Of a stretch of 64,000 nt of DNA, positions 6,414 to 28,995 are shown one piece after another. Position 1 is the stretch's first letter. Each line of letters begins with the position of its first letter. A model generated the notes under the pieces. The model saw only the letters and a list, made by a program, of their open reading frames with translations. It was not told the DNA's origin and ran no database searches. The position numbers were made by a program, and so were the translations under genes. The stretch is taken from positions 23,972 to 87,971 of the forward strand of contig JBMYRH010000019.1 in the NCBI GenBank assembly GCA_049602155.1, given 5' to 3'. The DNA comes from Myxococcota bacterium. Lineage in GTDB: Bacteria; Myxococcota_A; UBA9042; PHBI01; JBMYRH01.

Positions 6414-9400
6414 TCACTCCGAAGGCTTTGCGCGCTCAAAGGCGTCCGCAAAGGGGGCGATGCCGTCGACAAGTTCACCGAGGGTCGCGCCTGGAGAGGT
6501 GGCGATCTGCTCGACCATCGCCTCATAGGCCTTGGCGACCGCCTGAACGGCTGCTGGGCTATATCGCGCCTGAAAGAGCCCCTTGATGCCGTCGGAATCG
6601 CGGTGCAGGTCCATCAGCGGATCTCCCGGGATCGCCTCTGGCACATTGACCGGGGTTCGGAGGGCCCGGATCGGCAAACGCGACGAGCCCAGCGGCGCAA
6701 AGGCGCTCAAGGGGGTGGTGATGCTTATCACGCACCCCGCTGTGCGAGTCCGTGCCCGACGAAACCAGCGCGTAACCCGGCGCTCTAGCGCATAGCGCGC
6801 AGAATTGATGACGAGGTCGACCCTGTGGGTCAGCTCGACCCGAGGCGTCGCGCTCTTCATCGACCACAGCGCCCCGACAAGCCGGGAGAGGGCATACGGG
6901 CGCACCGTCCCGCGCATGAAGAGCTGCCGACTGATCCCCAAGAGGACCGTGGCCGGCAGCCGCGCGTGGTCACTGGCAGAGGCGTAGCGCTCTGCGAACT
7001 CGGACAGCCCCTCTAAAAGGCGCTGGTCGCGGTCGAGCTGGCTCTGCTGATACATCGCGCCGGCCATCACCAGCGGGAGGCCCTTGAACGCCGCTTCATC
7101 ACGGTTGTGGTAGGCCGATAAGCAACGCATCAGAGGGGCACGATGGACCCCATGGAGCGTCAAGAACACGCAATAGGTGAGCGCCGCCTCGAGCGAGATG
7201 CCGAGCTCTCGGGCCGTCCCCTCGAGCGACTCCGTGGCCGACGCGCTGAGGTGCGCGGTCTCTCCGTGGACGGTGTCTTGGAGCAGGCGTGTCGGGACGG
7301 TCCAGCTGGCATCGCCGTCCTGGGTCTCTCGATAATAGGCGACGCTCGCCTCGATGCTCGTCTCCGTGATGCGCTCCCGCTCCCACGCCATATAGTCGGC
7401 CAGGGCCATCGGCTCCGGGGGTGAAAAGAGGGCGCCATCAAGCCGGGCCATATAGGTGTCATGGAGTTCACGGACCAAGAGCTGAGTCGTGTGACCATCG
7501 ACCAGCGCCTGAGGCGCAACAAAGGCGAAGTACCAGCTCATATGGTCCGTTTGCGCGAGCAGCGCCGTGAGCATCGGCGAGCGGTTTCTGAAGGGCTCAT
7601 TCACGGTGCGGCGCACCCGAGAGAGGACCTGATACTCCGCGGCATCGGGGGCCAAGCGTCGGAGATCCATCCGAGTGACGTTACACATCCTGATGTCCGC
7701 ACGTCGCATCACGGGCGCGCTCATGTCGAACTGCATCCAGGGGAGCTCATGGCGCGCCAAGACGTCATCCCATGCCTCGAGGAAGACCTCCGCGTCGATC
7801 CGCCCCTGGAGGTGCAGCACACAAGGAGAGGTGTAGTTCATGCCGCGCCGCAGCAGATGCCAGTGGCCCATTTGAGCCTGGCCAAGAGGCACCCTCGCCG
7901 GTCGCGCCACGGCTGGGACCGTTGGTTCGATTGAGACGGCATTGTCTGGCGACTTGTGCGCTTCGTCTAGGGCCGCAGCGATCGCGCGGATCGTCCCCAG
8001 GCGATAGATGTCGGCCACGCTCAGTGTGCCGCCCATCGTATCTCTTAGCTGCGCGACCATGCGCACCGCGCGGAGTGAATCCCCCCCCACCTCGACGAAG
8101 CGGTCCAAGACACCGAGCGCGTCGTGCGCCAGCAGCCCAGACCAGATGGCGAGTAAGCGGCGCTCTGTGTCGGTCTCTGGGGGCGCATGGGTGCGCTCCC
8201 GGAGGACAGGCTCGGGTGCAATGGCGAGGATCGCGGCGACGTCGAGCTTGCCGTTCGCGTTCAAGGGCAGCGCTCCCATGCGCACCCGGCGCGTCGGGAT
8301 CGCGTGCGGTGGAAGGTGCAACGCCAAGTGCTCCAAGAGCTGCACGTCGTTAAGACGAGAGCGCGGCCCTAGGGTGTATGCGAGGACCAGCTGTGGGGGC
8401 TCGCTGTGGGTCGACACAGCCGCTGCTTGGCGGACGTCCTCGTGACGCATCACCGCAGCGCTGACCTCACTGGGCTCCAGCCGCTGTCCGCGGATCTTGA
8501 GCTGCTGATCCACCCGCCCCAAGAAGTCCAGCTGACCATCGGTCCGCCAGCGCGCGCGGTCGCCTGTTCGGTAGAGGCGACCCGCCGAAGCGCCTAAGGC
8601 CTTGGGCGCCATCACGAAGCGCGCTTGGGTCTCCTCTGCGAGGTCATCGTAGCCGAGCGCGAGGCCGGCCCCGCCAACCCAGAGCTCCCCTGGGAAGCCC
8701 TCCGGGAGGAGCGCACCGTCGGGATCGAGGACGTAGCACGTGCTCCCGGCGATAGGGCGACCGATCGGGACCGCGTGACCCGGTCGATCGGGCTGAACCC
8801 GCGCGATCGTCGAGAAGACGGTGTTCTCTGTGGGCCCATAGCCATTGAGGAAGCGCTCTGGGCGCCCCTCGCTCTGCCCGAGCACGATGCTCGCAGCGCC
8901 TGGGTCGAGGACATCCCCGCCGATGAGGAGGAGCTTCAAGGTCGTGAAGCTCTCCGGCTGCGCGTCGACATGAGCGTGGAAAAGCGGCGTGGCTAAGCCC
9001 AGTGCGGTCACTTGGTGCGCAGCGATCTCCTCAGAGAGGCGCAGCGCATCCAGCATCTCGACGCGAGAGAGCACGACGAGGCGCGCGCCCATGAGCAGCC
9101 CGCCCCAGATCTCCCAGGTCGAGAGGTCAAAGGCTAAGCTCGCCCCGTGAACCACCACGTCCTCTGAGGAGAGGGTGTGTGGTCCACCTCCGCAGGCCAG
9201 ACGCATCACAGCGCGATGAGGTACCACGACCCCCTTCGGCTCCCCTGTTGAGCCGGAGGTGAACATGACGTAGGCCCCGGTCTCAGGGTCCGCGTCACTG
9301 GAGACTGGGCCGTCCGGTTGTCCCGAGAGGCAACCGGGGACATCCAGTGAGAACCTCGGCAAGGTGACGGTCTCGGGCAGCTGCTCGAGCAGATGGTTGT

Positions 9401-11057
9401 GACCCATCACTGCGACAACGCCGGCAGCCTCGAGCTGTGACACCCAACGCGTCACAGGATCTGTCGGTCGAAGGGGGACGTAGGTGAGCCCCAACTTCAC
9501 CGCGGCGAGCATCGAGACGATGGCCTCGGCGCTGCGCTCAAAAAGCAGCGCGACGCGTCCACCTACCGGGGGCCGCGTGTCGCATTTCGACAAGAGCGCA
9601 TGCGCCGTGCGATTTGAGCGCACATCAAGGGCCCAATAGGTCATCCGGTCGGGCCCTGTCTGAATCGCGACGTCGTCGGGGTACTCGGTGGCGATGTGGG
9701 CGAACCGATCCGCGAGGGTCCCGCGAGCACCGGGATCAAGGTCGCGCCCTTGGGCATGCGCCAACAAGCGGCTGCGCTGAGGAGCGTCGACCAACGTCAA
9801 GGTCGTGAGGCGCGCATCAGGCGCCTCACAAGCCCGCTCAAGGAGGCTGAAGAGTGCGCGCATGAAGGACTGCACCAACCAAGGCGCAAAGCGATCTTCT
9901 CGACCGGACAACCTCAGCCGAGTGGGCGCACCAACCTCTACTTCGAGGAGCAGTTCCCAGATCGCCTGTACGGGTGGCGGCACCTCAGCGGTCACCTCAA
10001 CCCCTGCGAGCGCCAGCGGCGCAACCCTGAGGTGCGTCGCCGCGAACCCCACGTTGAGGAAGTGCTCGTCGGGGCCCAGATCGTTGTGGGCGCGCAGCGT
10101 CTCCACGATCCGCTCCCAGGGGACATGCTGATGCGCCCTGGCGGTGCGACGCGCGTCGCGTACCGCGCAGATCACCTCCGCGAAGCTCGCCTCGCCGACC
10201 TGCAAAACCATCGGGAGCGTGTTGATAAAGCACCCCAGCTGCGCAGCCGCATCTTGAGGTCGCAGACTGACCGGGTAGCCGAACGCGATGACGTCCTCGC
10301 CCGTCAGGCGGTGAATCCACGCGGCCCAGCCCGCCACGAGGACATGCAACAGGGTCGCATCGTGGACCTCGGCGAGGCGATTGAGGGCCCCCTCAAGGGC
10401 CTCGGGGAGCGCCGCGATGTGCACATTTGAGCGGTCACCGGGGCCAGCGGAGAGCGAAGAGATCGGGGTATGCGCGGAGGCCGAGCCCGCGACATCACGC
10501 CAGTATGAGAGGTCCGACGCAGTGACCTCGGCGGTCGCGTCGTCTTTCACGGTAGACAGTGGCCACTGAGGGAGCTCGCCCCCCGAGACGATGGCATCGT
10601 AGGCCTCACCGAGCTGGCCAAAGAGGACCGGGATCGCCGCGCCGTCCAGCGCGATGTGATGAACGACCGTCACGAGGAGGCCCGTGTCGGGCCCCGCCGC
10701 GAGCACCCCAGCGCGCAACAGCGGACCCTCCTCCACGTGACACGGTGCGTGATGCAGACGCGCCACAAAGGCGTCGCGTGCATCGTCGAATTCCTCTGGG
10801 TCGACGCGCTGGTTGATGAGCGGCGCGCTCATCTGCTCGTGGACACGCAGGGACAAGCCATCCGCCGTGTCATGGAAGGTGGCGCGCAAGATCTCGTGAT
10901 GGCCGATGACTGCATCGAAGGCGGCTTGCAGGGCGTCCAAATCGACGAGGCCATCCACCCGGTGCACAAAGGCCACGTTGTAGGCAGAGTTCGAGGGGTC
11001 AAGCTGCGCTTGAAGCCAGAACCTCTCGTGAATTGGCGACGCTACGACGGTCTTCAA
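6414..11057 (-). CDS. Stand-alone single-module NRPS, C-A-PCP-C(degenerate)
   Basis: C domain HHIALDG. A domain YVMFTSGSTGEPKGV, FDLS, NGYGPTE, LYRTGD and PLNANGK. PCP FVEVGGDSL. Second C-like domain with PQALVDG. No TE or R domain. Confidence 0.9.
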   Translation of the reverse strand: MKTVVASPIHERFWLQAQLDPSNSAYNVAFVHRVDGLVDLDALQAAFDAVIGHHEILRATFHDTADGLSLRVHEQMSAPLINQRVDPEEFDDARDAFVARLHHAPCHVEEGPLLRAGVLAAGPDTGLLVTVVHHIALDGAAIPVLFGQLGEAYDAIVSGGELPQWPLSTVKDDATAEVTASDLSYWRDVAGSASAHTPISSLSAGPGDRSNVHIAALPEALEGALNRLAEVHDATLLHVLVAGWAAWIHRLTGEDVIAFGYPVSLRPQDAAAQLGCFINTLPMVLQVGEASFAEVICAVRDARRTARAHQHVPWERIVETLRAHNDLGPDEHFLNVGFAATHLRVAPLALAGVEVTAEVPPPVQAIWELLLEVEVGAPTRLRLSGREDRFAPWLVQSFMRALFSLLERACEAPDARLTTLTLVDAPQRSRLLAHAQGRDLDPGARGTLADRFAHIATEYPDDVAIQTGPDRMTYWALDVRSNRTAHALLSKCDTRPPVGGRVALLFERSAEAIVSMLAAVKLGLTYVPLRPTDPVTRWVSQLEAAGVVAVMGHNHLLEQLPETVTLPRFSLDVPGCLSGQPDGPVSSDADPETGAYVMFTSGSTGEPKGVVVPHRAVMRLACGGGPHTLSSEDVVVHGASLAFDLSTWEIWGGLLMGARLVVLSRVEMLDALRLSEEIAAHQVTALGLATPLFHAHVDAQPESFTTLKLLLIGGDVLDPGAASIVLGQSEGRPERFLNGYGPTENTVFSTIARVQPDRPGHAVPIGRPIAGSTCYVLDPDGALLPEGFPGELWVGGAGLALGYDDLAEETQARFVMAPKALGASAGRLYRTGDRARWRTDGQLDFLGRVDQQLKIRGQRLEPSEVSAAVMRHEDVRQAAAVSTHSEPPQLVLAYTLGPRSRLNDVQLLEHLALHLPPHAIPTRRVRMGALPLNANGKLDVAAILAIAPEPVLRERTHAPPETDTERRLLAIWSGLLAHDALGVLDRFVEVGGDSLRAVRMVAQLRDTMGGTLSVADIYRLGTIRAIAAALDEAHKSPDNAVSIEPTVPAVARPARVPLGQAQMGHWHLLRRGMNYTSPCVLHLQGRIDAEVFLEAWDDVLARHELPWMQFDMSAPVMRRADIRMCNVTRMDLRRLAPDAAEYQVLSRVRRTVNEPFRNRSPMLTALLAQTDHMSWYFAFVAPQALVDGHTTQLLVRELHDTYMARLDGALFSPPEPMALADYMAWERERITETSIEASVAYYRETQDGDASWTVPTRLLQDTVHGETAHLSASATESLEGTARELGISLEAALTYCVFLTLHGVHRAPLMRCLSAYHNRDEAAFKGLPLVMAGAMYQQSQLDRDQRLLEGLSEFAERYASASDHARLPATVLLGISRQLFMRGTVRPYALSRLVGALWSMKSATPRVELTHRVDLVINSARYALERRVTRWFRRARTRTAGCVISITTPLSAFAPLGSSRLPIRALRTPVNVPEAIPGDPLMDLHRDSDGIKGLFQARYSPAAVQAVAKAYEAMVEQIATSPGATLGELVDGIAPFADAFERAKPSE

Positions 11058-11158: not shown

Positions 11159-13672
11159 CTAGGGCTGGCCGCCGTAACACTCCGCTGAATTCTCGGCGCA
11201 CATCTCGTCAGTGCACGTCTGGCACTCAGGGCCGCCTCCCATGCACTCGCTCAGGCAGAACTCCATGCTGCACGTGATCAAGTCCCCCATGCAATACGCG
11301 CACTCCTCGCTGAGGCCATTGGTGAAGAGGCAGTCTCCGACGCAGGTCGGCTGATCTTCCGCCGCGAAGCACTGCTGCCCACAAGTGGAATTCATCCAGG
11401 GCTGACTCTGCATCAGAGCGCTGTCGGCCTGCCCCATACACAGCCCCTCGTTATCCCCACCCGGGTCGCCCGGGCCGCCGGGGCCACCGGGGCCGCCGGG
11501 GCCGCCAGGGCCACCAGTGCCGCCCCCTTGTTCGCCGTAACAGGCTGCCATCTCCTCGGCGCACTCGGTCTCGGCGCACTCACCACACGCGTCAGGGTCG
11601 GACGAGTTCGAGCAGGCGTCATTGCACTCGGTGAGCGTGCACCCGAGCATCCAAGACACACAGCCTGAGCACCCATCGGAGAGCCCAAGGTCCATGAAAC
11701 ACTGGGTCAAGCACGCCTCAGCTGTGTTCGGATCCACCATGCATGACCCCATGCAGGTCTCGACGAGGGTCGGGTTCGCCTCCATGATCCCCTGGTCACC
11801 CGCGCCCCCACACATGGCGCCCGCCCCGGGGCCATCATCGCCCTGGAAGCACGCAGCCTGCTCGGAGCCACACTCTTCTTGGACACAGGCCTCACACGCT
11901 TCACCCGTGGTGTCATTGTTGCACGTCTCCCCGCAGGCGAGGGTTGCGCACGCGGTCAGCACCCCGAGGCAGTCCGAACATGAGGGCGAAAAGCCCGCCT
12001 GCTGCAGACACGTGGTCAGGCAGCCGGCTTGATCAGGCGAGTCGACACAGGCCGCCTCGCAGACCCCCTTCGGGTCCGTGTCGCTCGTCAGCAGCGCGCC
12101 GTCCTGCTCGTTCACACACGCAGGGCCCTCACCCGGCCCCGGCATCCCGGGGCCACCATCATCGCCAAAGCAGTCTTGCGATTGATCTCCGCAGGCGGTC
12201 TTTGTGCAGGTGTAGCAAGCCGCACCGCCGTCCTGCGCTTGCGCTTGGGGGTTACACGAGGCGCCGCACTGCTCCATCGTGCAGACAGCGAGCACCGCCA
12301 TGCAGCCAGAGCAGTCCTCAGAGAGACCCGCGTCGGCCAAACACTGTGCGGCACACCCGAGCGGATCTGCGTCGTTCGCGCAGGTCCCAGTGCACGTCCC
12401 GATGGTCTCTTGGAGGGTCTCGATCAGGGGACCATCCTCGGGGTTCATGCACGCCGCAGGACTCTCTGGGCAGATCGGACAGTCCTCGGCGAAGCAGCTG
12501 TCGCGCTCGACGGCGCAGCTGTCATTGACGCACTGAGCACAGGTCGGATCGTCCGAGTCCACCGTGCACCCCGGTGCACAGTTCGCCTCCACGCAGCCCT
12601 GCAGGGGCGCCAAGCAGCCCGCGCACTCTCCCGAGATACCAGCGGTCGTCAGGCAGTCACTGAGGCACGAGGCGTCGGCGTCATCAGCGGCGCAATGCAT
12701 CACGCAGTCGCTGAACGGGGCGGCATCCGAGGTGAGGGTCGCGGTGTCGTCACCGCCGTCGCACAAGCCAGCATCTCCGGGCGTCAGCACCTCATCCTCC
12801 CAGAGGTCTAAGCCGCTGCAGCCCTGGAACGCTGGGTCGCAATTGGCGACGACACATGTGGTGCACTCGACCGTGTCGAATGTCGCGGCGCTACAGACAT
12901 CCGGGCAGCTCGCGACGGCGCAGGTGCCGAAGTCCGCAAAGCAACCACTGCAGTCGTTCGTCAGCCCCTCTTCAGAGGCACAGGTCCCGAAGCACTCACC
13001 GGCGTCATCCGCATCAAAGCAGGCGGACAGGCAGCCCGACATATCGTCGACCGCTCCAGCCTCGATCGCCTGTTGATCCGCTGGGTTGATGCACAAGAGC
13101 GCGGGCGGTGGGGCTTGATCGACCCCCATGCAGGTCTGAAGCCCATCTGAGCACGCGTTGGCGGCGCATTCGTTGCAGGCCTCGATATCGGTGGGGCAGA
13201 AGCTCGAGCAGTTGAACATCACGCACTCGGCCATCTCACCAAAGCAACCAGCGCATTCGATGCCGAGCGTGGTGGCGGCCTCGACGCACTCAGCGACGCA
13301 GACTGCGAGATCGGTCGCCCCTGACATCATGCATTCGGCCGTGCACTGACCCATCAGCTCCTCGATGTTCATGCTGGCGACGGAGTCAGCCTCTTCCGGA
13401 GTGCACTGTCCGGAGGGGGTCGTCGGTCCGGCGTCCTCTTCATCGGGGTCGACGGGATCGCCCGTGGTGTCCTCCATCGCTGTCGTCCCGTCCGCGACGC
13501 TTTCGCCGTCGGTGGTGCCGGCCGCAGCAGACGAATCGCTCTGGTCATCGACCGCGACGCTGGCATCGTCATTGATCTCTGGACCGCTCGTGTCATCACC
13601 GCTGCACGCGGCAGCCGTCATGATCAAGGTCGCACAGAGCACGAGAGAAGAGAGTCGAAGTGAAACACGCAT
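11159..13672 (-). CDS. Acidic Cys-rich lipoprotein with 7 tandem ~95-aa 14-Cys domains
   Basis: Lipobox-like AAAC-SG and D/T/S-rich linker. Seven repeats of C..D....CxxxC...CxxxC...GLSxxCxxC...CxxxxCxxxC...CxxC....C......C. (GGP)n linker. Confidence 0.8.
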   Translation of the reverse strand: MRVSLRLSSLVLCATLIMTAAACSGDDTSGPEINDDASVAVDDQSDSSAAAGTTDGESVADGTTAMEDTTGDPVDPDEEDAGPTTPSGQCTPEEADSVASMNIEELMGQCTAECMMSGATDLAVCVAECVEAATTLGIECAGCFGEMAECVMFNCSSFCPTDIEACNECAANACSDGLQTCMGVDQAPPPALLCINPADQQAIEAGAVDDMSGCLSACFDADDAGECFGTCASEEGLTNDCSGCFADFGTCAVASCPDVCSAATFDTVECTTCVVANCDPAFQGCSGLDLWEDEVLTPGDAGLCDGGDDTATLTSDAAPFSDCVMHCAADDADASCLSDCLTTAGISGECAGCLAPLQGCVEANCAPGCTVDSDDPTCAQCVNDSCAVERDSCFAEDCPICPESPAACMNPEDGPLIETLQETIGTCTGTCANDADPLGCAAQCLADAGLSEDCSGCMAVLAVCTMEQCGASCNPQAQAQDGGAACYTCTKTACGDQSQDCFGDDGGPGMPGPGEGPACVNEQDGALLTSDTDPKGVCEAACVDSPDQAGCLTTCLQQAGFSPSCSDCLGVLTACATLACGETCNNDTTGEACEACVQEECGSEQAACFQGDDGPGAGAMCGGAGDQGIMEANPTLVETCMGSCMVDPNTAEACLTQCFMDLGLSDGCSGCVSWMLGCTLTECNDACSNSSDPDACGECAETECAEEMAACYGEQGGGTGGPGGPGGPGGPGGPGDPGGDNEGLCMGQADSALMQSQPWMNSTCGQQCFAAEDQPTCVGDCLFTNGLSEECAYCMGDLITCSMEFCLSECMGGGPECQTCTDEMCAENSAECYGGQP
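11460..11516 (-). repeat. 9-bp tandem repeat encoding GGPGGPGGPGGPGGPGDPGG
   Basis: Repeated ccggggccr units inside the CDS. Confidence 0.7.
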
Positions 13673-13895: not shown

Positions 13896-15152
13896 ATGAT
13901 TCCCCCCACAACGGGGGCGGGTCTCGACCCGAAGCAGCTAAAAGGAAGCGTCTTGGCCAATCTGGGCTACTTACAGGTGGTGCGTCACTGCAACCACTTC
14001 TGTGGATTCTGCTCGAACCCGTCGACGCCGTACGCCCACACCTTCGAGACCATGAAGGTCCTGGTCGATGACTTCGTCGAGCGAGGCTACTTCGGCGTGA
14101 TCCTGACAGGCGGTGAGCCGACGCTGCACGAAGAGCTGCCCGTCATCGCGCGGTATGCGCGTGACCAAGGCCTCCACGTCCGGATGATCACCAACGGGCA
14201 CAAGCTCGCCGATCCACGCTTCGCCAAAGACTTAGCCGAAGCGGGCCTGCAGCATGTCCACGTGTCGATCTACTCCGTGCGCGAGGACGTCGAGGAGTCC
14301 TTGCGCGGCATCCCCAACACCCTGGGGCGGGCCTTCCAGGCGCTGCACAACGCCAACGAGAACGGGATCGACATCAACATCAACTGCGTGATCAACAAGC
14401 AGAACGCAGACCACCTCGATGAGAACATCGAGTATTTCATCGAGCATCACCCCTACATCCGTCACTTCGTCTGGAACAACCTCGACCCCTCGATGGGCCG
14501 CGCCGAGACGAATATGGACGGCTATATGCACCGCCTCGCCGACTGCGAGACCTCACTGAACCGCGCACTTCGCTTGCTCCATAACTCGGGGCGCACCTTC
14601 CGCGTGGAGAAGATGCCGCTGTGCTACCTCACCGAGTTCGCCTGGGCCTCGACCGAGACGCGTAAGATCGTCAAAGGCGAGGAGCGCATCGTGCACTTCC
14701 TCGACTCCAAGCAGACCGTGCGTCAGACCCAGTGGGGGCATATGTACGCCGAGGGCTGTGACGTCTGCTCACTCCGCACCATCTGCGGCGGCATGTTCGA
14801 TCGCGGCGATGGCTACGATCCAGCCGAGCTCTACCCGGTCTTCGTGGATCGTGATCGCATCGTGAGTCAGATCATCCATGACGGCACAGATCCGAGCTAC
14901 GCGAACCGCAGCCTCGCTGACTGGCGAGAGGAATTCGAAGCGCGCCTCCGAGAGGCACCGACGGGCCCCCCCGAAGAGGGCTACGAGGACGGTGGACCCG
15001 AGGGGCCGGAGATCGGCTTTGTCGACGAGTCATCGATGCGGCTCTTTGAAAAGAAGCGGAAGGTAGAGTCCAAAATGGCGGTTAAGAAAGGCGTCACGAT
15101 GGAAAAAACAGACGTGGCCTTGGGCGACAAGCAGTCGCAAAAGGCCTGGTAG
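13896..15152 (+). CDS. Radical SAM protein with C-terminal auxiliary Cys motif
   Basis: CNHFCGFC, LTGGEPT and ITNG motifs, then PLC...CDVCSLRTICGG. Confidence 0.9.
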   Translation: MIPPTTGAGLDPKQLKGSVLANLGYLQVVRHCNHFCGFCSNPSTPYAHTFETMKVLVDDFVERGYFGVILTGGEPTLHEELPVIARYARDQGLHVRMITNGHKLADPRFAKDLAEAGLQHVHVSIYSVREDVEESLRGIPNTLGRAFQALHNANENGIDININCVINKQNADHLDENIEYFIEHHPYIRHFVWNNLDPSMGRAETNMDGYMHRLADCETSLNRALRLLHNSGRTFRVEKMPLCYLTEFAWASTETRKIVKGEERIVHFLDSKQTVRQTQWGHMYAEGCDVCSLRTICGGMFDRGDGYDPAELYPVFVDRDRIVSQIIHDGTDPSYANRSLADWREEFEARLREAPTGPPEEGYEDGGPEGPEIGFVDESSMRLFEKKRKVESKMAVKKGVTMEKTDVALGDKQSQKAW

Positions 15153-15158
15153 GTCGGG

Positions 15159-16850
15159 ATGACGGATAAGACCGGTCACAGCGAAAAGCATCTCCGCGAG
15201 GCGCGGGAGCTGACCGTCTTTGGGGGCGGCGAGCAGCAGCATCAAATTGAGCTGCAGCTGGGGCACGTCTGCAATAACCGCTGCGTCTTCTGCGTCTCCG
15301 GGCAGCTCACCGAGCAGCGCGTCGCCAAGCAGATCCCCGCGGACCCCGTCCTCGGCGCCCTGCGCAAAGGGCGAGAGGACGGCTGCCGTCGCGTCACCTT
15401 CTTAGGGGGGGAGCCCACCACTCAGCGCAGCTTCATGCCAGCCCTGCGTCTGTCGGTCGAGCTCGGCTACGAAGAGATCGTCATCTTCACCAACGGTATC
15501 CGCACGAGGAAGCCTGAGTTCATCCAAAAGATCGTCGACTTGGGCGGCAACTATGAGTGGCGCTTCTCCGTCCAAGGTGGCACCCGAGAGGCCCATGACG
15601 CCGTGACCAAGCGCCCGGGCTCCTACGACCGCATCGTCGCGGGGATGCGCACCTGCGCGGACATGGGCGAGGACGTCACGATCAACATGTGCATCAACCG
15701 GTACAGCTATGAGTCGGTGCCGCACTTCCCGGAGCTCTGCAAGGAGTACAACGTCCGACAGCTGCACATCGATCAGGTGCGCCCCTCGGACGCCGGCACC
15801 CGGGACATGGACTACTTCCTAGATATCATGCCGCGCTACTCGGAGATGGCCCCGTACTTCGCCGAGATGCTCGAGGGGTTCCACGCGATGGACCCGAACT
15901 TCGACGTCAACCTCGGCAACTACCCGTACTGCCAGCTCCCCGAGTGGGCGCAACATATCCACCATGACGGGCAGAAGACCTACACCTACCCAGCCAATAC
16001 CGATGGGCTGCTGCCGGCCTTCGACAAGTACCCTGTGAAGCGGGCCGACAAGTACCACCCGCCGCAGTGCGGTCAGTGCGTCTTCGTGAAGGACTGCAAT
16101 GGGGTCTTTGAGACCTACGCTGAGATGTACGGCGTCGACGAGTTCGTCCCGGTCACCCGCGAGAAGCTGATGACCATCGACCGCGACATGAACTTCTTCG
16201 TGCAGCTCGTCGAGCCTTACCTAGCCGGCGTGCTCTCCTCCCCGTGTCCCGAGCCCTGGAGCGCCGTCGAGCGCTTCTCAAACACGCGCGATCGCCTCCT
16301 TGAGCTCCGCTATGCCGACGGAGAGGGGCGCGCTGCGACGCTGATCTTCACGCCCCCTGAGGGCGTCGGGAAGCCCGTGAGTGTGCATCGCCCCTTGCTT
16401 GAGACCGAGCGCTACCGCATGTCATTGCTCGCGGACAGCAACGCGGACATGCGGCTCATCACCCAGCTCGTCCGGTGGGCTGACACGATGCTCGCCCGAG
16501 AGGACGTCGAGGTCACCCGCCCCGTCGACTACAAGCGGCTCGCAGCGGGCTTCTTCCCTCCCGCTCGTTTGGAGAAGGGCCGCTCACGCATCCAACGATT
16601 GGCGGGCGCCGTCGCGAGCCAACGCACCTTCGGGGAGTGGTCTTGGGTCGGCACGCAGCCCCTCGACGTCGGCCTCGGAGCTGTCCTCCGGGTCGCACAC
16701 CCCGAGGGGGGCACCGTCGACCTCGTCCTCGAGCTTCAACCCGAGGCGGATCGACCGCTCGTGGGGGTCAGCTACCGGATCGACGACGATGTGTCGGCCG
16801 AAGAGGCGCGCCCTGTGGTCAGCGAGTTGATGCAGGCGCTCCGGCGTTGA
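15159..16850 (+). CDS. Radical SAM protein with auxiliary Cys motif and ~220-aa C-terminal extension
   Basis: CNNRCVFC, FLGGEPT and FTNG motifs, then PYC...CGQCVFVKDCNG. Starts 6 bp after the upstream stop. Confidence 0.9.
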   Translation: MTDKTGHSEKHLREARELTVFGGGEQQHQIELQLGHVCNNRCVFCVSGQLTEQRVAKQIPADPVLGALRKGREDGCRRVTFLGGEPTTQRSFMPALRLSVELGYEEIVIFTNGIRTRKPEFIQKIVDLGGNYEWRFSVQGGTREAHDAVTKRPGSYDRIVAGMRTCADMGEDVTINMCINRYSYESVPHFPELCKEYNVRQLHIDQVRPSDAGTRDMDYFLDIMPRYSEMAPYFAEMLEGFHAMDPNFDVNLGNYPYCQLPEWAQHIHHDGQKTYTYPANTDGLLPAFDKYPVKRADKYHPPQCGQCVFVKDCNGVFETYAEMYGVDEFVPVTREKLMTIDRDMNFFVQLVEPYLAGVLSSPCPEPWSAVERFSNTRDRLLELRYADGEGRAATLIFTPPEGVGKPVSVHRPLLETERYRMSLLADSNADMRLITQLVRWADTMLAREDVEVTRPVDYKRLAAGFFPPARLEKGRSRIQRLAGAVASQRTFGEWSWVGTQPLDVGLGAVLRVAHPEGGTVDLVLELQPEADRPLVGVSYRIDDDVSAEEARPVVSELMQALRR

Positions 16851-19584
16851 GCCCCCGCGTCGACCTCGAACTCTCGCCTCGGCTCGATAACTTCACGGCC
16901 GTCGCGAAGCAGGCACGCGCTGTGACAGAGGGCGGTGAGCAGGTCGTCGTCTCGGTGCCCGTGAACACGCACACCTACCGCCGGCTGCCCGACGTGGTCC
17001 GCTGGGTCGATGACAGACTGCGCGGCATCGCTGGGCTTCAATTCACCCATGAGGCTGCCGATCCGGTGAGGGGCGCCGCTGACTTTCAGGCCTGGTGGGA
17101 GGCGACACGGCACGCCTGCGAGGTCCGAGAGGTCGGCTGCCTGATCGGCGACACGCTGCCCGGCGCACCGGGCCCCGGTCTGAAGCCCATGGGGCCCAAG
17201 AGACGCCCAGAGCCCCACCCCGAATTGCTGACGACGTGGCCCTTAGCCGGGGCTGAAGAGATGGAGGACAGCATCACCGCGCTGATGGAGGGCGTCGGCA
17301 CCCTGGCGCGCTTCGTGAACCTCCCCCGGCTCACAGAGGCTCACCCGAAGATGCTGGCCTATGTGCGCCAAGATCCGCGGGACATGGCTCGGTACGAACG
17401 CCACACAGCGAGCACGCAACTTCGAACGCTGATCCACGCCCACGATGCCGTGGATCAGGCGCTCATCGACAGCCTCGCGCGCTCCTGTGAGGCCCTAGAC
17501 TCCCAAGTCGTCATCGCACGCGGACAGAATGTGGAGGCTGCGGACACCCTCGACACCTTCACAGCCCGCATCACCCTGGGTCGCGTCCAAGCTGCCGACT
17601 ACACCTCGGTGACCGAGCAAACGCTGGGCCTCTTCCCCGACGCACAACGGCACGCAGCGATGCTGGCGCTCGGCAGCGATTGGCTGCGACCCACGCCGCC
17701 CTCCACCTGGCACCCATGCCTCGGCGCAGACCTGTGGCTTGTCGATGCGCCGGGCCTAGGGCTCATCGCCGCTGGCAGCGACCCAGTGACGCTAGACCGC
17801 TTCTTCCTCGAGGCACTTGAGCTCGACGATGAGGGGTGCCCATGGATGTCCGACGCCCGTGAGGCAGAGAGCCACTGGGTAACACGAGAGGCCGTCGTTC
17901 CTGGGGGAATATTGCCCCTCGCAGCCGTCGATCGACCGCGACCCGCGCGCTCGGAGCGACCGCTGACCATCCTCGGGATCGCCTCGACGACCCTGGCGAA
18001 TCACTCCGCAGTCGTCCTCCGCGACGGCGAGATCGTCGCGGCCGTCCAAGAGGAGCGCTCGAGGCGTCGAAAGCAGCTCGGCTGGCACCCCGTCGGGGAG
18101 CCCGGCGTCACGGTGGTCAGCGACGCGACCCTGCCGCTCGAGGCCAGCTGGCCAGAGCGCGCGATTCAATCCGCGCTCGACATCGCCGGGATCACCCTCG
18201 ATGACGTTGACCACGTCGCTTACAACGGGATCCCTGCGCGCTTCTTCCCGACCTACGACCTCAGGGACCCGGACCGGCCCCCCAAGACCATCTTTGACGG
18301 GAGAGACTTCTACGTCCCCCATCACCTCGCCCACGCGGCGTCAGCCTTCAGGGTCTCCGGGATGGAAGACGCCTTCATCTTCACGGTCGACGGGCGCGGC
18401 GAACGCGAGACAGCGGGGTTCTTCGTCGTCGAGGAGGGGAAGATACGGAGGATCTTCGACGTCTTGGTCAACGAAGACAGCCTGATCGGGGGGGTCTACG
18501 AATACCTGACCACCATCCTGGGCTTTGGTCACCACGGTGCGGGCTCCACGATGGGCTTGGCGCCCTACGGTGAGGCGCGCTTCGACCTCTCACCCTGGTT
18601 GAGCGCACGGAGCCGGGACGACTACACGATCCACGACCGAGGCCTCGACGCGCCCTTCGGCCACCTGACGCGCAAACGCAACGGGGTGATGACGCAAGAT
18701 CACAAAGACCTCGCGGCGAGCGCGCAGAGGGCCCTTGAGGAGACCGTCTTGGCATTCGTGCGCGATGGCGCCGGTGGCCGACCTGTCCCCCGGCTGTGCT
18801 TGGCGGGCGGGGTGGCGCTGAATTGCTCGATGAACCAGCGGCTGCGGGTCGAGCTCGGCGTCGAAGAGATCTACGTGCAGCCTGCGGCCAATGACTCGGG
18901 CACTGCGCTTGGGGCCGCGGCCGAGGCACACTTCGAGCTGACCGGTGAGAACATCACGCCGATGCACCACGCAAAGCTCGGCCCTTGCTACTCACGGGCC
19001 GAGGTCGAGGCGGCCCTCTGCCGCTTTGGCCTCGCCTACACCACGCCAGAGGACCTCCCGGTGGAGGTCGCCAGGCGGCTCGTCGATCAACAGGTCATCG
19101 CTTGGTTTGATGGCCGGCTGGAATTCGGGCCCAGGGCCCTCGGGGGGCGGAGCATCCTCGCCGATCCGCGCACACAAGCGATGCAAGACCGAGTCAACGC
19201 GCACAAGGCCCGACAATCCTGGCGCCCCTTTGGCCCCTCGATCCTAGCCGGACATGAGGCGGACTGGTTCCTGACCCCCTTTCATAGCCCGTTCATGCTC
19301 TTCACCTTGCCCGTGAAGCCCGAGCGGCTGGATCAAATCCCCGCTGTGGCACACGTCGATGGCACCACGCGCCCTCAGTCTGTCACCCAAGCTGACAACC
19401 CGAACTACCACGCGGTCATCTCTGAGTTTCACCGCTTGACCGGCGTCCCGATGGTGCTCAACACCTCGTTTAATACAGCATTTGAGCCGATCGTGCAGAG
19501 CCCGGAGGACGCCATCTCGAGCTTCTTGCAGCTGGGCGTCGACGCCCTAGCGATCGAAGGCTACCTCGTCGAGCGACCACGCCC

Positions 19585-19588
<4 letters not shown>
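16847..19588 (+). CDS. NodU/CmcH (TobZ-like) carbamoyltransferase with ~370-aa N-terminal extension
   Basis: HHLAHAASAF, DGRGE, LAGGVALN, QPAANDSGTALGAA, EFGPRALGGRSILADP and LNTSFN. The TTG start overlaps the upstream TGA (TTGA at 16847-16850). Confidence 0.88.
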
Positions 19589-21942
<2,354 letters not shown>

Positions 21943-25694: not shown

Positions 25695-27218
25695 CTAAGC
25701 GGGCGCGTCGATGCCGAGCAGGTCGAAGACGTAAGGCTGCAGCCATGGGAACACCCCGGTGATCGCCCCGGCGTTCTGCAAGAAGCCTCGCGCGATGTCG
25801 ATGTTCTTGCCCCGCAAGACCACATCTATCCACGCCTTCATCGCTTGGTCGGCGTCATGCTGACTCAGCTCAAGGCTCACGTTGCTGTCCTGCCCCAAGC
25901 AAAGGTCGCACATCACCAAGCCGATGCCCGCCTCGGGTAACTCGTCGACCATCTGGGCCACGAGCGCGCGCGTCCCATGGATATCGCCAGACATCATGAG
26001 GGCGCGGGCGAACGTGATACCATCAGCCCCTGACGGCGGATCGCCAGCGAGCGGACGCATCAGCGCCATCGCTTCCTTAGCGTCACCATCGGCGAGCGCG
26101 AGGTCCGCCATGGCGCGGGCCGCGACGGAGATCTCGTCGTCCATCACGTTGTAGGTCATGGCCTCGATGATCAACGTGTGGGCCTCTGCGAGTTGACCCG
26201 TCGCGAGCGCGATCCGGCACATCCCCATCAACGGACGCACCGATGACAGCTGTAAGTTTCGCGTCCCAGGGTGCCCGAGCGCGCGCTGATAATCAGCCAC
26301 CGCGGACTCAAATTGACCGAGGAGTTCACGTTGATGGCCGCGCCAGTAGTGAAACGCCGCCGAGGGCAAAATTCGTGTCTCCCAGCCCTCCAACCACACC
26401 AACGTGCCCTTGGCGTCATCGGGGTAAAGCCCTAAGGCCGTGAGCACGACCAGTTCGCCTCCGTAGTGAGCATCTGCGATGACCGATGCTCCCCCCCGGT
26501 TGAGGGCGGCAGAGGCATCCTGAGCCGCCGCCATCCACAAAGCTTTGTCATGCCAATAGCGCGCCTGCTCCATGCGCTTGTAGTGACTGTAGAGGTCGTC
26601 GGGATCGTCGGCGAGGCACTGCTCCAATAGAGAGATGTCGCGTGTTCTCTTGTCTTTCGCGGACGCCACGTCGCGCACATAGCCCAGGTGATCCACGACG
26701 CCAGTCAAGGCCTCTAGGTGACGCCCTGTTCGCCCGAGGGCGTCAGACACGGACGCTGAGATGTCTTCATGAATGCGATGCACGAAGCGCACCGCTGGGT
26801 CGTTCCTCCAGACGCGAAGCAGAGGCGCCGCGTGGATGTGACCGCTGGGGTGACGGTTCTCCATCACCACCGTCGCTGCACCGGCGTTGTCCTCGGGCAG
26901 GTTCACGAGCACTTTGAGCTGAGCGTGCAGCTCGGGGCTGATGCGCTCATCGGCATCGAAGAACGCGACCCACTCCCCGGTGGCGAGCTCAAGGCCGGCG
27001 TTGCGCGCGGCCGAGAAGTCATCGTCCCACGGTCGATGCGTCACGGTAGCGCCAGCCTGTTGGAGGATCTCCACGGTCGCGTCTACGGACCCAGTATCGA
27101 CCACAACAAGCTCATCCCAGAGCCCCTCTACAGAGCGTAAAAAGTCAGGCAGCATGCCAGCTTCATCACGAACAATCATGCACAGCGAAAGACGTATATC
27201 GCGCATAGAAATCGGCAT
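25695..27218 (-). CDS. Glycosyltransferase family 2 with TPR-like C-terminus
   Basis: LSLCMIVRDE, VVDTGSVD, WDDDFSAARN, FFDADE, RIHE and HLGY, followed by a helical repeat tail. Confidence 0.85.
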   Translation of the reverse strand: MPISMRDIRLSLCMIVRDEAGMLPDFLRSVEGLWDELVVVDTGSVDATVEILQQAGATVTHRPWDDDFSAARNAGLELATGEWVAFFDADERISPELHAQLKVLVNLPEDNAGAATVVMENRHPSGHIHAAPLLRVWRNDPAVRFVHRIHEDISASVSDALGRTGRHLEALTGVVDHLGYVRDVASAKDKRTRDISLLEQCLADDPDDLYSHYKRMEQARYWHDKALWMAAAQDASAALNRGGASVIADAHYGGELVVLTALGLYPDDAKGTLVWLEGWETRILPSAAFHYWRGHQRELLGQFESAVADYQRALGHPGTRNLQLSSVRPLMGMCRIALATGQLAEAHTLIIEAMTYNVMDDEISVAARAMADLALADGDAKEAMALMRPLAGDPPSGADGITFARALMMSGDIHGTRALVAQMVDELPEAGIGLVMCDLCLGQDSNVSLELSQHDADQAMKAWIDVVLRGKNIDIARGFLQNAGAITGVFPWLQPYVFDLLGIDAPA

Positions 27219-27327: not shown

Positions 27328-28995
27328 CTAGGGAGGTGGAGGGGAGCAGTAGCCAGGCTCTGCATGACACTTGCTGTTGACGCACACACCATCGCACTGC
27401 GTGCTCGCGGTGCAACTCTGCCTCAAACACCCACCAGCGTCGCATCCAAAGTTCGCAGGACACTCAGTCGCATTCTGACAGCTCATCGTCGTGCAGTGAC
27501 CATCCTCTCCGCAAACCTCACCCTCCTTGCAAGAGTCTGCGGTGCACGCTGGCACACAGACCTTAGAGGGCTCGCAGAGGCAGCTCTGAGCATCCCATTC
27601 ACAGACCGACCCAGCAGCACACTCGGCGTCCTGGTCACAGGTGTCAGCCATCTCGGCGGGCATGCACATCCCGCAGCCCATGGACTGACCCGGCGCCCAG
27701 CACATCGCGAAGTTGTCTTCACATGGCGTCTCAGCCGTACAGCCACCGTCACAGACCTTGGCAGTGCACTTCGGCATACCGTTAGGCATGCACTCGCAGG
27801 TGTTGCAGTCGACCTCCCAGGTCTCCCCCTCCGGATAAAACTCTCCGTCCCACTCGCAATCGGCGGAGCACGCCATCTCGGTGCAGGCCACGCTCCCATC
27901 AGCCTCGCACGTGCAGGTGTTGCAATCGTCCGCCCAGCTCTCGCCTACAGCGTACGTCTCTTCACCGACAGTGCAGGTGATCGCGCACGCCATCTCGGTG
28001 CAGGCCACGCTCCCATCAGCCTCGCACGTGCAGGTGTTGCAATCGTCCGCCCAGCTCTCGCCTACAGCGTACGTCTCTTCACCGACAGTGCAGGTGATCG
28101 TGCACGCCATCTCGGTGCAGGCCACGCTCCCGTCATCTGTGCAGGTGCAGGTGTTGCAGTCATCGTCCCAGCTCTCACCAGCTTCATAGGTCTCTTCGCC
28201 CACCTGACAGGTGACCGGACAGGCCTCCTCGGTGCAGCTCACGGTCCCGTCGGACTGACACCCACAGGTGTTGCAGGCGACCTCCCAGCTCTCTCCCTCT
28301 GCGTAGGTTTGACCGTCGAACTCACAGGTCACGGGGCAGGCCTCGTCTGTGCAGCTGATCGCGCCCGCAGCACAGGTGCAGGTGTTGCAGTCCGCCTCCC
28401 AGCTCTCGCCGTCGGCGTAGGTCACGTCGCCCACCTGGCACGAACCCGAGCAGTCCAGCTCCGTGCAGCTCATGGCGCCGTCAGCGCAAGAGCAGGCGTT
28501 ACAGTCATCGAACCACTCGTCGCCGTCGGCGTAGGTCATGTCGCCTACCTGGCACGAACCCGAGCAGTCCATCTCCGTGCAGCTGATGGCGCCGTCGGCG
28601 CCGCAGGTGCACGTGTTGCAGTCGACCGTCCAGGTCTCACCCTCGACGTGGATCTCGCCGTTGACCTCACAGGTCGGAAAGCACGCCATCTTCGTGCAGC
28701 CGACCATCCCTTCGGTGCAGGTGCAGGTGTTGCAGTCCACGTCCCAGCTCTCGCCATCCGCATAGGTGAGCCCATCCACCTCGCAGCTCGCCGCCGAGGT
28801 GCAGTCCATCTCGGTGCAATCAAACGCGCCTGACGCATTGCATGTGCATGTATTGCAGTCGACATCATATCCCTCGCCCTGAGCGTAGGTCTGACCGTCC
28901 GCATCGCAAACGACTGCTTCCGAAGGTGAATTCGACGCGTCACACGCCATCATGGTGGCAATGAGGAGTGCCAAAGATAAGAGAGTCAATCGCAT
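27328..28995 (-). CDS. Lipoprotein with 10 pacifastin/VWC-like 6-Cys repeats
   Basis: Lipobox MMAC. Ten copies of C-x16-CNxCxC-x2-3-G-x3-CTxxxC and a Cys-rich tail. Confidence 0.8.
   Translation of the reverse strand: MRLTLLSLALLIATMMACDASNSPSEAVVCDADGQTYAQGEGYDVDCNTCTCNASGAFDCTEMDCTSAASCEVDGLTYADGESWDVDCNTCTCTEGMVGCTKMACFPTCEVNGEIHVEGETWTVDCNTCTCGADGAISCTEMDCSGSCQVGDMTYADGDEWFDDCNACSCADGAMSCTELDCSGSCQVGDVTYADGESWEADCNTCTCAAGAISCTDEACPVTCEFDGQTYAEGESWEVACNTCGCQSDGTVSCTEEACPVTCQVGEETYEAGESWDDDCNTCTCTDDGSVACTEMACTITCTVGEETYAVGESWADDCNTCTCEADGSVACTEMACAITCTVGEETYAVGESWADDCNTCTCEADGSVACTEMACSADCEWDGEFYPEGETWEVDCNTCECMPNGMPKCTAKVCDGGCTAETPCEDNFAMCWAPGQSMGCGMCMPAEMADTCDQDAECAAGSVCEWDAQSCLCEPSKVCVPACTADSCKEGEVCGEDGHCTTMSCQNATECPANFGCDAGGCLRQSCTASTQCDGVCVNSKCHAEPGYCSPPPP
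27868..28131. repeat. Near-perfect 117-bp tandem duplication (~2.3 copies)
   Basis: gcacgccatctcggtgcaggccacgctccc begins at 27868, 27985 and 28102. Protein units 8 and 9 are identical. Confidence 0.9.

Follow-up and report, generated by a model that had tools for sequence, protein, structure and literature searches.

A radical SAM and carbamoyltransferase operon of a Myxococcota bacterium as a candidate satellite of a dispersed type-4 His-Xaa-Ser system

We analysed a 64,000-nucleotide stretch of DNA from a Myxococcota bacterium (contig JBMYRH010000019.1 of assembly GCA_049602155.1; hereafter the window) that carries three co-directional open reading frames (ORFs) at 13896-15152 (gene 1, 418 aa), 15159-16850 (gene 2, 563 aa) and 16847-19588 (gene 3, 913 aa from TTG). 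The reading we favour, with moderate confidence, is that gene 1 encodes an HxsC orthologue, gene 2 an accessory HxsC-like radical SAM enzyme and gene 3 a TobZ-type carbamoyltransferase (CT), the three together being a satellite operon of a type-4 His-Xaa-Ser system whose genes are dispersed, and predicted to modify the peptide HxsA4. The junctions are as tight as an initial annotation of this DNA had described: genes 1 and 2 are 6 bp apart (TAG-GTCGGG-ATG), and the start of gene 3 overlaps the stop of gene 2 in TTGA. The probable start of gene 1 is TTG 13953 (399 aa) and not ATG 13896, since the consensus of its orthologues opens MANIGY and AAGGAAG sits just 5' of that TTG. Both radical SAM enzymes exceed the Pfam Radical_SAM cut-off of 29.5 (85.8 bits for gene 1 and 70.5 for gene 2), and each carries CxxxCxxC and a late motif with invariant cysteines, again in agreement with the annotation. 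The paralogy it proposed is real but distant (21% identity over 325 aa, E 5e-9). The late motif was taken to be SPASM/twitch-like; neither enzyme matches the SPASM Pfam, but the motif exists and is common to canonical HxsC.

Gene 1 is likely an HxsC orthologue, though it lies outside the curated equivalog TIGR03977, because it is the top match of two canonical HxsC proteins and falls into one clade with them. In searches of the 4,699 proteins of our own gene calling (the own proteome), gene 1 came first with both Klebsiella pneumoniae HxsC (E 4e-20; next paralogue 2e-12) and Roseomonas HxsC (E 1.5e-17; next paralogue 8e-12), and gene 1 and canonical HxsC are best matches in both directions. 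An alignment shows the late P-x-C...CxxC-x5-CxG motif to be common to gene 1 and the two annotated HxsC proteins. In gene 1 it reads P241-x-C243...C288xxC291-x5-C297-x-G, its four Cys invariant across 37 aligned orthologues. An IQ-TREE phylogeny of 32 rows, including paralogues and outgroups, placed gene 1 and both canonical HxsC proteins in one clade (99/95) that rests on two HxsC rows with long stems; the same grouping had a support of 86 in a FastTree of 70 rows, where long branches were flagged. Cultured carriers of gene 1 include Plesiocystis pacifica, with a precursor nearby, and Minicystis rosea, with genes 1 and 2. Gene 1 patterns sought in viral contigs gave no match.

The initial annotation had left room for both radical SAM enzymes to belong to characterised families that explain the cluster. 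That MoaA, NirJ/Ahb, PqqE or viperin is such a family is the least probable explanation we considered. Models of all four do match weakly, but all such matches lie far under their cut-offs (the viperin model, for instance, gives 54.9 where 180 is required, and AhbD 78.9 where 500 is), and the MoaA-like and NirJ-like proteins of this genome branch apart in the 32-row tree. We rejected the viperin, MoaA, NirJ and PqqE assignments as generic radical SAM similarity. The families to which the enzymes do map are catalogued in NCBIfam, yet their chemistry is uncharacterised.

The distribution of gene 1 follows that of a repeat peptide. In relatives the precursor has the form leader-HCS-(HGS)n-W and 90-250 aa; all five precursors scanned pass NF038313 (HxsA4), and the two scanned for a peptidoglycan-binding domain gave no such match, Pfam Collagen being the sole hit. 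Among 150 genomes of the phylum that are at least 90% complete, gene 1 and an HxsA4 match occur together in 52 and are both absent from 93; four genomes have gene 1 only and one has HxsA4 only. All four genomes with gene 1 only show HGS repeats by DNA pattern, two of these at contig ends. In 60 relatives, 41 hold both genes, 13 neither and six are discordant, one of these with gene 1 incomplete at the edge of a contig. Moreover, where presence is mixed within a family, the same genomes hold gene 1 and HxsA4 (3/11, 3/5, 3/10, 1/8 and 1/2). HxsA4 is therefore the likely substrate, and a peptide was among the options that the initial annotation had listed.

The precursors have features of their own. 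Glycine recurs at every third position of (HGS)n, and one precursor (L188:3564-4046) scores 33.7 bits against Pfam Collagen; a triple-helix-like assembly of the repeats is conceivable. The leaders share an LP-x-x-K-K...FL-S-x-E-E motif, which we presume to resemble the leaders of Flp pilins and SbtA. The precursor at L202:4839-5594 (G036:C16) has 58 HxS triplets, HGS and HAS mixed, and the end HGQW; it sits in a compact HxsD/HxsB/radical SAM operon with a CT from outside the window CT's clade nearby.

Other parts of the system lie elsewhere in the same genome. HxsB is found on contig C5 (TIGR03978, 521.6 bits, above cut-off), with a second, divergent copy below cut-off on C21, so that gene 1 is not beside hxsB. 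HxsD (TIGR03976, 72.2 bits, above cut-off) and an HxsD-like protein (NF038315, 68.5 bits, cut-off 41) are both on C21, and an HExxH hydroxylase above cut-off is on C43. Seventeen HxsC-like genes are spread over eight contigs, seven of them on C43, each with at least 190 bits against a profile of local radical SAM cores; the count is descriptive, as the profile includes these sequences and the best unrelated control reaches 188 bits. No protein of the genome reaches the HxsC4 (NF038332) cut-off of 500, the best scoring 120. The main cluster (G000:C43:1-21400; L208, L210) comprises a truncated CT, the seven HxsC-like genes, one further radical SAM gene, GNAT-like domains, a ferredoxin-fused double radical SAM protein, an SDR, a DUF483 protein and the hydroxylase. 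HxsD, the HxsD-like gene and the divergent hxsB lie together at G000:C21:3681-5801, and the HxsB above cut-off stands alone at C5:55150-56658. Two relatives (G008, G012) have more than one HxsB each. Type-4 HxsD proteins, including the one of this genome (L211:3287-3802), have a conserved acidic tail ending DDPLGIAxxWEEK past the TIGR03976 domain.

The precursor gene of this genome probably lies in an assembly gap before C43, between C11 and C43, given the synteny with relatives and the contig ends at these two points. In three relatives (G002, G005, G014) the order is precursor, CT and radical SAM gene, and both enzymes match the first genes of C43 at 59-69%. C43 itself opens 41-42 codons into a CT whose orthologues directly follow the precursor, and the end of the precursor would be expected 225-285 nt from C43:1. 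On the other side, the start of C11 is matched by genes that lie 5' of the precursor in G003 and G005, and C11 itself terminates within a gene. Sequencing run X1, which may be the source of this DNA, has a contig that runs 315 nt beyond C43:1 and then stops, a suggestive observation only; no RNA run was listed among the matching sequencing runs. HGS repeats break other assemblies likewise.

Searches for the precursor in what has been assembled were negative. An NF038313 search of the genome found no genuine HxsA4, and a profile of 39 leaders reached 11.6 bits at best. None of the 4,699 called proteins has three or more HxS in 30 residues, and a 24-mer taken from the beginning of C43 had no exact match in metagenome contigs. 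We rejected the top NF038313 match, on C11, as the antisense of an unrelated Asp-Pro-Thr repeat. These results could also mean that the precursor was lost in this lineage and that the trio is a leftover, or a repurposed juxtaposition after rearrangement. The widely varying gene order would fit such a history, as would one relative (G008) that also has neither gene 1 nor repeats. We consider it quite unlikely: all three reading frames are intact, and the start of C43 inside a CT, the synteny of C11, the end of the X1 contig and the repeat-broken assemblies elsewhere speak for a gap.

The neighbourhoods of gene 1 place the trio within this system and not in a pathway of its own. We collected the best 80 of 172 relatives of gene 1 in genome contigs (63-77% identity; most named records are Myxococcota). 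An ORF of the form leader-HCS-(HGS)n-W is present in 21 of the 80 loci, another HxsC-like gene in 30, HxsB in 12, HxsD in 11 and a gene 2 orthologue in seven. Exact gene order around gene 1 is poorly conserved, and the order of the window recurs in a single locus, there with one radical SAM gene inserted. Homologues of the three genes do co-occur in other genomes but in shuffled order, and the view of the trio as a self-contained, undescribed pathway could not be upheld, since each of the two enzymes is assignable to the His-Xaa-Ser system already in the catalogue. The gene 1 orthologue of G003 and that of G010 lie within the equivalent of the C43 cluster, which is why the window operon resembles a fragment displaced from such a main cluster.

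The same loci bear on the non-ribosomal peptide synthetase (NRPS) encoded at 6414-11057, whose product the initial annotation had named as a possible substrate. Its proximity, at about 2.8 kb, is the one positional argument that the trio tailors this product, and CTs are known often to tailor products of NRPSs and polyketide synthases. However, the NRPS gene is on the opposite strand with a Cys-rich lipoprotein gene between, no NRPS A or C domain was matched in any of the 80 loci, and the phyletic pattern tracks HxsA4; we regard this explanation as very unlikely. No His-x-Ser repeat ORF is present in the 280-nt gap 5' of the trio, and the downstream gene overlaps the trio's stop codon, in line with the annotated absence of a precursor from the flanking DNA.

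Gene 2 is a predicted accessory HxsC-like paralogue, separate from gene 1. Its late motif, P256-x-C258...C304xxC307-x5-C313-x-G315, keeps its four Cys in 15 of 15 orthologues, and orthologues occur in 18 of the 150 phylum genomes, every one of which also has gene 1. Against HxsC TIGR03977 it scores 68.7 bits (cut-off 267.9). In a wide all-against-all fold search with the predicted model (mean predicted local distance difference test score, pLDDT, 86.9), the nearest solved fold was SkfB, a maturase of a ribosomally made, post-translationally modified peptide (RiPP), with Z 20.5 and a root mean square deviation (r.m.s.d.) of 3.3 over 250 aligned residues; Foldseek with the same model returned BlsE, a nucleoside enzyme, as its top match. 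The four conserved late Cys and the nearest fold are compatible with one auxiliary cluster. The C-terminal extension of about 220 aa is duplicated (HHalign of one half against the other, probability 84%, E 7.8e-6); it gave no Pfam match, and fold and Atlas searches, whole-chain runs that barely probe an extension, put no name to it. A likeness between this extension and the small stand-alone protein of the cluster was not significant (probability <5%) and was dropped.

Gene 3 exceeds the cut-offs of both CT Pfams, PF02543 and PF16861 (121 and 214 bits). Its core matches TobZ in sequence (E 4e-79) and in fold (Z 25.0, r.m.s.d. 3.6, 458 aligned). HHLAHA, DGRGE, ANDSG, K787, FMLF and NTSFN align with their counterparts in TobZ and GdmN, and H492, H496, D515, D683, K787 and M817, which we take to serve the metal and nucleotide sites, are invariant in 17 homologues. 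Against the NodU equivalog NF041651 it stays below cut-off (137 bits, cut-off 1000). The initial annotation of a full NodU/CmcH enzyme was correct for this part but overlooked about 365 extra N-terminal residues ahead of the core, as it did the extension of gene 2. The first ~100 of these resemble the second half of a radical SAM barrel without the cluster motif, scoring 21 bits against a profile of 129 local radical SAM cores (18 long-form homologues, 9-41.6; best of 210 shuffles, 5.3), a match that does not separate HxsC from other SPASM-type barrels. The second part is predicted as folded, with pLDDT mostly 80-95; it had no Pfam match in 17 homologues and no Atlas match above a TM-score of 0.5, and the fold search put no name to it, in whole-chain searches that barely probe extensions. 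We had presumed a likeness to DUF362, and Pfam gave no such match.

The CT is linked to the radical SAM enzymes well beyond the window. In a quick tree, without bootstrap, of 64 CT cores (those fetched from a CT search plus earlier loci, near-copies among them), the window CT falls in a 25-row clade with a support of 99 in the SH-like approximate likelihood ratio test. For 20 of the 25 members an HxsC-like domain or a precursor is found no more than 7 kb away, against 4 of 39 other CTs; of the five members without such a link, three sit at contig ends and two are isolated. Eleven further strong CT matches in the phylum sample comprise seven that are linked, five of them by fusion to an HxsC-like domain, and four borderline scorers that are not. 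Fusion of the CT to a high-scoring HxsC-like domain occurs in G010, G037, G055, G085, G090, G100, G113 and G157, and the pairing of gene 2 with the CT recurs in G005 (with one small radical SAM gene between), G010, G014, G019, G027 and G113. A precursor gene stands directly 5' of a clade CT in G002, G005, G014 and G029. The clade is present in 11 of the 150 phylum genomes (E<=1e-100), nine of which have gene 1, and two carriers of the clade, G157 and G134, yielded neither gene 1 nor HGS repeats. The genome under study has four clade members: that of the window, two on C10 and one on C43. The CT at G000:C10:200382-205106 is fused to a weak-scoring C-terminal radical SAM domain and adjoins an HxsC-like gene, beside a set of fatty-acyl, ACP and methyltransferase genes. 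The annotated combination of radical chemistry and carbamoylation on a substrate encoded elsewhere thus gained support, with gene 2 and CT as recurrent neighbours and frequent fusions in the clade.

The main rival is that gene 1 acts on HxsA4, but that gene 2 and the CT act on a small molecule (a sugar, nucleoside, cofactor or lipid head group) that accessory enzymes produce and that is then joined to the peptide or serves alongside it. The solved relatives TobZ, GdmN, NovN and VtdB use small molecules; BlsE heads the Foldseek list of gene 2; the C43 cluster has GNAT-like domains, an SDR and ferredoxin-fused radical SAM domains; and in G157 a CT is fused to a radical SAM domain with neither gene 1 nor a precursor found. 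Set against these are the precursor directly 5' of a clade CT in four genomes of three families, the first place of the RiPP maturase SkfB in the all-against-all fold search, and NodU-like enzymes that do work on ribosomal peptides (PMC13174530, PMC10070186; available text). No glycosyltransferase stood out by eye among the neighbour families found in three or more loci. We consider a small-molecule acceptor unlikely, and yet the most serious competitor of a peptide acceptor.

A maturation pathway can be proposed for the satellite operon on this basis. In the canonical system HxsC binds HxsD, HxsB, HxsC and HxsD are needed for processing of HxsA, and +8 Da is reported on SHRSS (PMC13128918, available text). 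By analogy with this +8 Da change, and given its HxsC orthology, gene 1 would act in trans with HxsD and HxsB to put a core radical modification on His/Ser of the HGS repeats; that its substrate is HxsA4 is highly probable. Gene 2 would then, in our estimate quite probably, add a further, lineage-specific radical modification. CTs of this kind proceed through carbamoyl-AMP, and the title of the solved structure 7XB6, a match in the fold search, names a carbamoyl-adenylate complex. Gene 3 may accordingly be pictured as forming carbamoyl-AMP from carbamoyl phosphate and ATP and moving the carbamoyl group (+43 Da) to a peptide hydroxyl, its half-barrel docking on the maturation complex, a step towards which we lean only slightly. 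The acceptor could be a repeat serine, or a hydroxyl made by the HExxH hydroxylase or by a radical SAM enzyme. An antiphage role is possible by analogy with the canonical system; it is equally plausible that the peptide binds metal or acts at the surface, because the precursor is without a peptidoglycan-binding domain and the genes are dispersed among ordinary chromosomal genes.

Several observations weigh against a satellite operon that modifies HxsA4. Curated models match weakly: the top NCBIfam match of gene 1 is TIGR03977 HxsC at 107 bits (curated cut-off 267.9), with HxsC4 (NF038332) at 69.4 (cut-off 500), and that of gene 2 is NF038332 HxsC4 at 108.8 (cut-off 500). Six-frame HxS-repeat scans of this assembly, contig ends and N gaps included, found no HxsA4. 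Four of the 52 double positives are under the HxsA4 cut-off, and two of these four, G174 and G108, score like the false match in the genome under study. G188 has HxsA4 without gene 1, and G008 has HxsB, HxsD and a clade CT with neither gene 1 nor repeats. The 60- and 150-genome samples overlap, kin genomes are not independent and loci are partly duplicated between searches. Only one of the 80 gene-1 loci has a full CT core, 48 of the 80 (24 of the 38 long loci) have no other Hxs gene in the fetched flank, and the profile by which genes were called HxsC-like derives from these very neighbourhoods. The CT clade has its own exceptions, besides the quick nature of its tree: the members at C10:89829 of this genome and in G008 have no radical SAM neighbour within about 9 kb on each side, and L273 (G157:C148:7504-11445) is a clade-like CT::radical SAM fusion in a 96%-complete genome, possibly a repurposed copy. 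Solved CT relatives all act on small molecules, and most HxsA4 genomes are without the clade, so that carbamoylation would be optional.

Coordinates of the operon and its parts are collected below.

Features of the operon (positions in the window)
Feature	Positions	Strand	Basis
Gene 1, likely HxsC orthologue of the type-4 His-Xaa-Ser system	13953..15152	+	ORF open from ATG 13896
Spacer between genes 1 and 2, 6 bp	15153..15158	+	sequence
Gene 2, predicted accessory HxsC-like radical SAM enzyme, core ~residues 25-335	15159..16850	+	
Gene 2 C-terminal extension, two tandem ~100-aa alpha/beta domain copies, unnamed family	16191..16847	+	HHalign of halves
Gene 3 start, cluster-less truncated half radical SAM barrel, predicted non-catalytic docking module	16847..17146	+	radical SAM core profile
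Gene 3 N-terminal extension, second part, folded alpha/beta domain, family without a name	17147..17959	+	structure prediction
Gene 3 catalytic part, NodU/CmcH/TobZ-type CT (Kae1-like and YrdC-like domains)	17960..19588	+	PF02543, PF16861

The GC content of the trio locus equals that of the rest of the window, and there is therefore no mark of a recent island; a promoter and terminator scan at the locus did no better than chance. Putative Cys-rich, repeat-containing lipoproteins are encoded on both sides of the operon, at 11159-13672 (-), 19585-21942 (-) and 27328-28995 (-). One belongs to no family, one has LVIVD and Dictyostelium repeats and one VWC/pacifastin-like repeats, and conservation of these genes next to gene 1 orthologues was not seen. 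The NRPS at 6414-11057 (-) has one module (C-A-T-C), and no gene for tailoring or release is evident next to it. A GT2 glycosyltransferase with TPR repeats is encoded at 25695-27218 (-); its top NCBIfam match, the SunS peptide S-glycosyltransferase, at 57.6 bits falls far below the cut-off of 350.

The type-4 kind as such is already catalogued (NF038313, NF038315, NF038332). New here are the HxsC orthologue family picked from many paralogues, the dedicated CT clade with fusions to live and dead radical SAM barrels, and the dispersed layout. We found no literature on the type-4 branch or its CTs, and no paper using the names HxsA4 or HxsC4, in a search that left most subscription journals and supplements outside; the main text of a 2026 Myxococcota survey makes no mention of Hxs or radical SAM. 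An orphan-looking operon thereby becomes a marker of a system in ~37% of the genomes sampled. StdF is called only the second RiPP-associated CT (PMC13174530, available text); if carbamoylation of the peptide is correct, gene 3 would be a rare further one, and the first coupled to radical SAM as far as the literature search reaches. The small, uniform substrate and the simple expected shift of +43 Da make the question directly testable. More tentatively, a third of the phylum may run a peptide-maturation megasystem of at least 17 HxsC-like enzymes, in some lineages with a CT family fused to live or dead barrels, decorating (His-Gly-Ser)n; gene 3 would then be a radical SAM-coupled peptide CT that yields O-carbamoylated repeats, with a dead half-barrel as docking module. 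If so, heavily modified His-rich peptides of a new class would result.

The canonical His-Xaa-Ser system is an HxsD-HxsB-HxsC-HxsA antiphage system (Li et al. 2026, PMC13128918), found as a four-gene unit in >99.8% of cases and 99.7% in Pseudomonadota; according to the available text of that study, the chemistry of HxsB and HxsC was unresolved in the one system studied and reconstitution in vitro failed. PMC9062424, in the text available, credits HxsB/HxsC to Haft and Basu. The system described here resembles the canonical one (TIGR03976-TIGR03978, HxsA) in its HxsC-type core with P-x-C...CxxC-x5-CxG, in the HxsB and HxsD of the same genome and in the His-x-Ser repeat substrate of relatives. 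It differs in that its genes are spread over at least eight contigs, with 17 HxsC-like genes and four clade CTs and no four-gene D-B-C-A operon. Gene 1 lacks the N-terminal segment of ~90 aa of canonical HxsC and has a conserved C-terminal tail, and whereas canonical HxsA has five HxS repeats and a peptidoglycan-binding domain, the precursor of relatives ends (HGS)n-W without a match to that domain. The NCBIfam type-4 set (NF038313, NF038332, NF038315) is closer: precursors beside orthologues pass NF038313, the HxsD-like protein of this genome passes its model and gene 2 scores best with HxsC4. Nevertheless no protein of the genome reaches the HxsC4 cut-off, and NCBIfam has no dedicated model for any of genes 1-3.

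Among RiPP CTs, the myxobacterial CgnI (crocagin, PMC10070186) and StdF (PMC13174530, a preprint), which is NodU-like and adds +43 Da with carbamoyl phosphate and ATP, modify a ribosomal peptide, as gene 3 is predicted to do. In the available text the enzymes that accompany them are a dioxygenase, or YcaO and MNIO, and not radical SAM enzymes, and the substrates are not repeat polymers. CTs fused to a RiPP recognition element (RRE) are reported in PMC12710340 (available text). With TobZ (3VEN), GdmN (7VYJ) and NovN (9S2T), gene 3 shares the two-domain fold and the conserved metal- and nucleotide-site motifs. It differs from TobZ, NodU and CmcH in its N-terminal extension of 365 aa with half a radical SAM barrel, in an insertion of ~28 aa after QEER and in an N-terminal motif that reads NH, against HD in the generic paralogues of these genomes. 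Finally, and unlike TobZ, NodU and CmcH, the clade of the window CT is linked and fused to HxsC-like enzymes.

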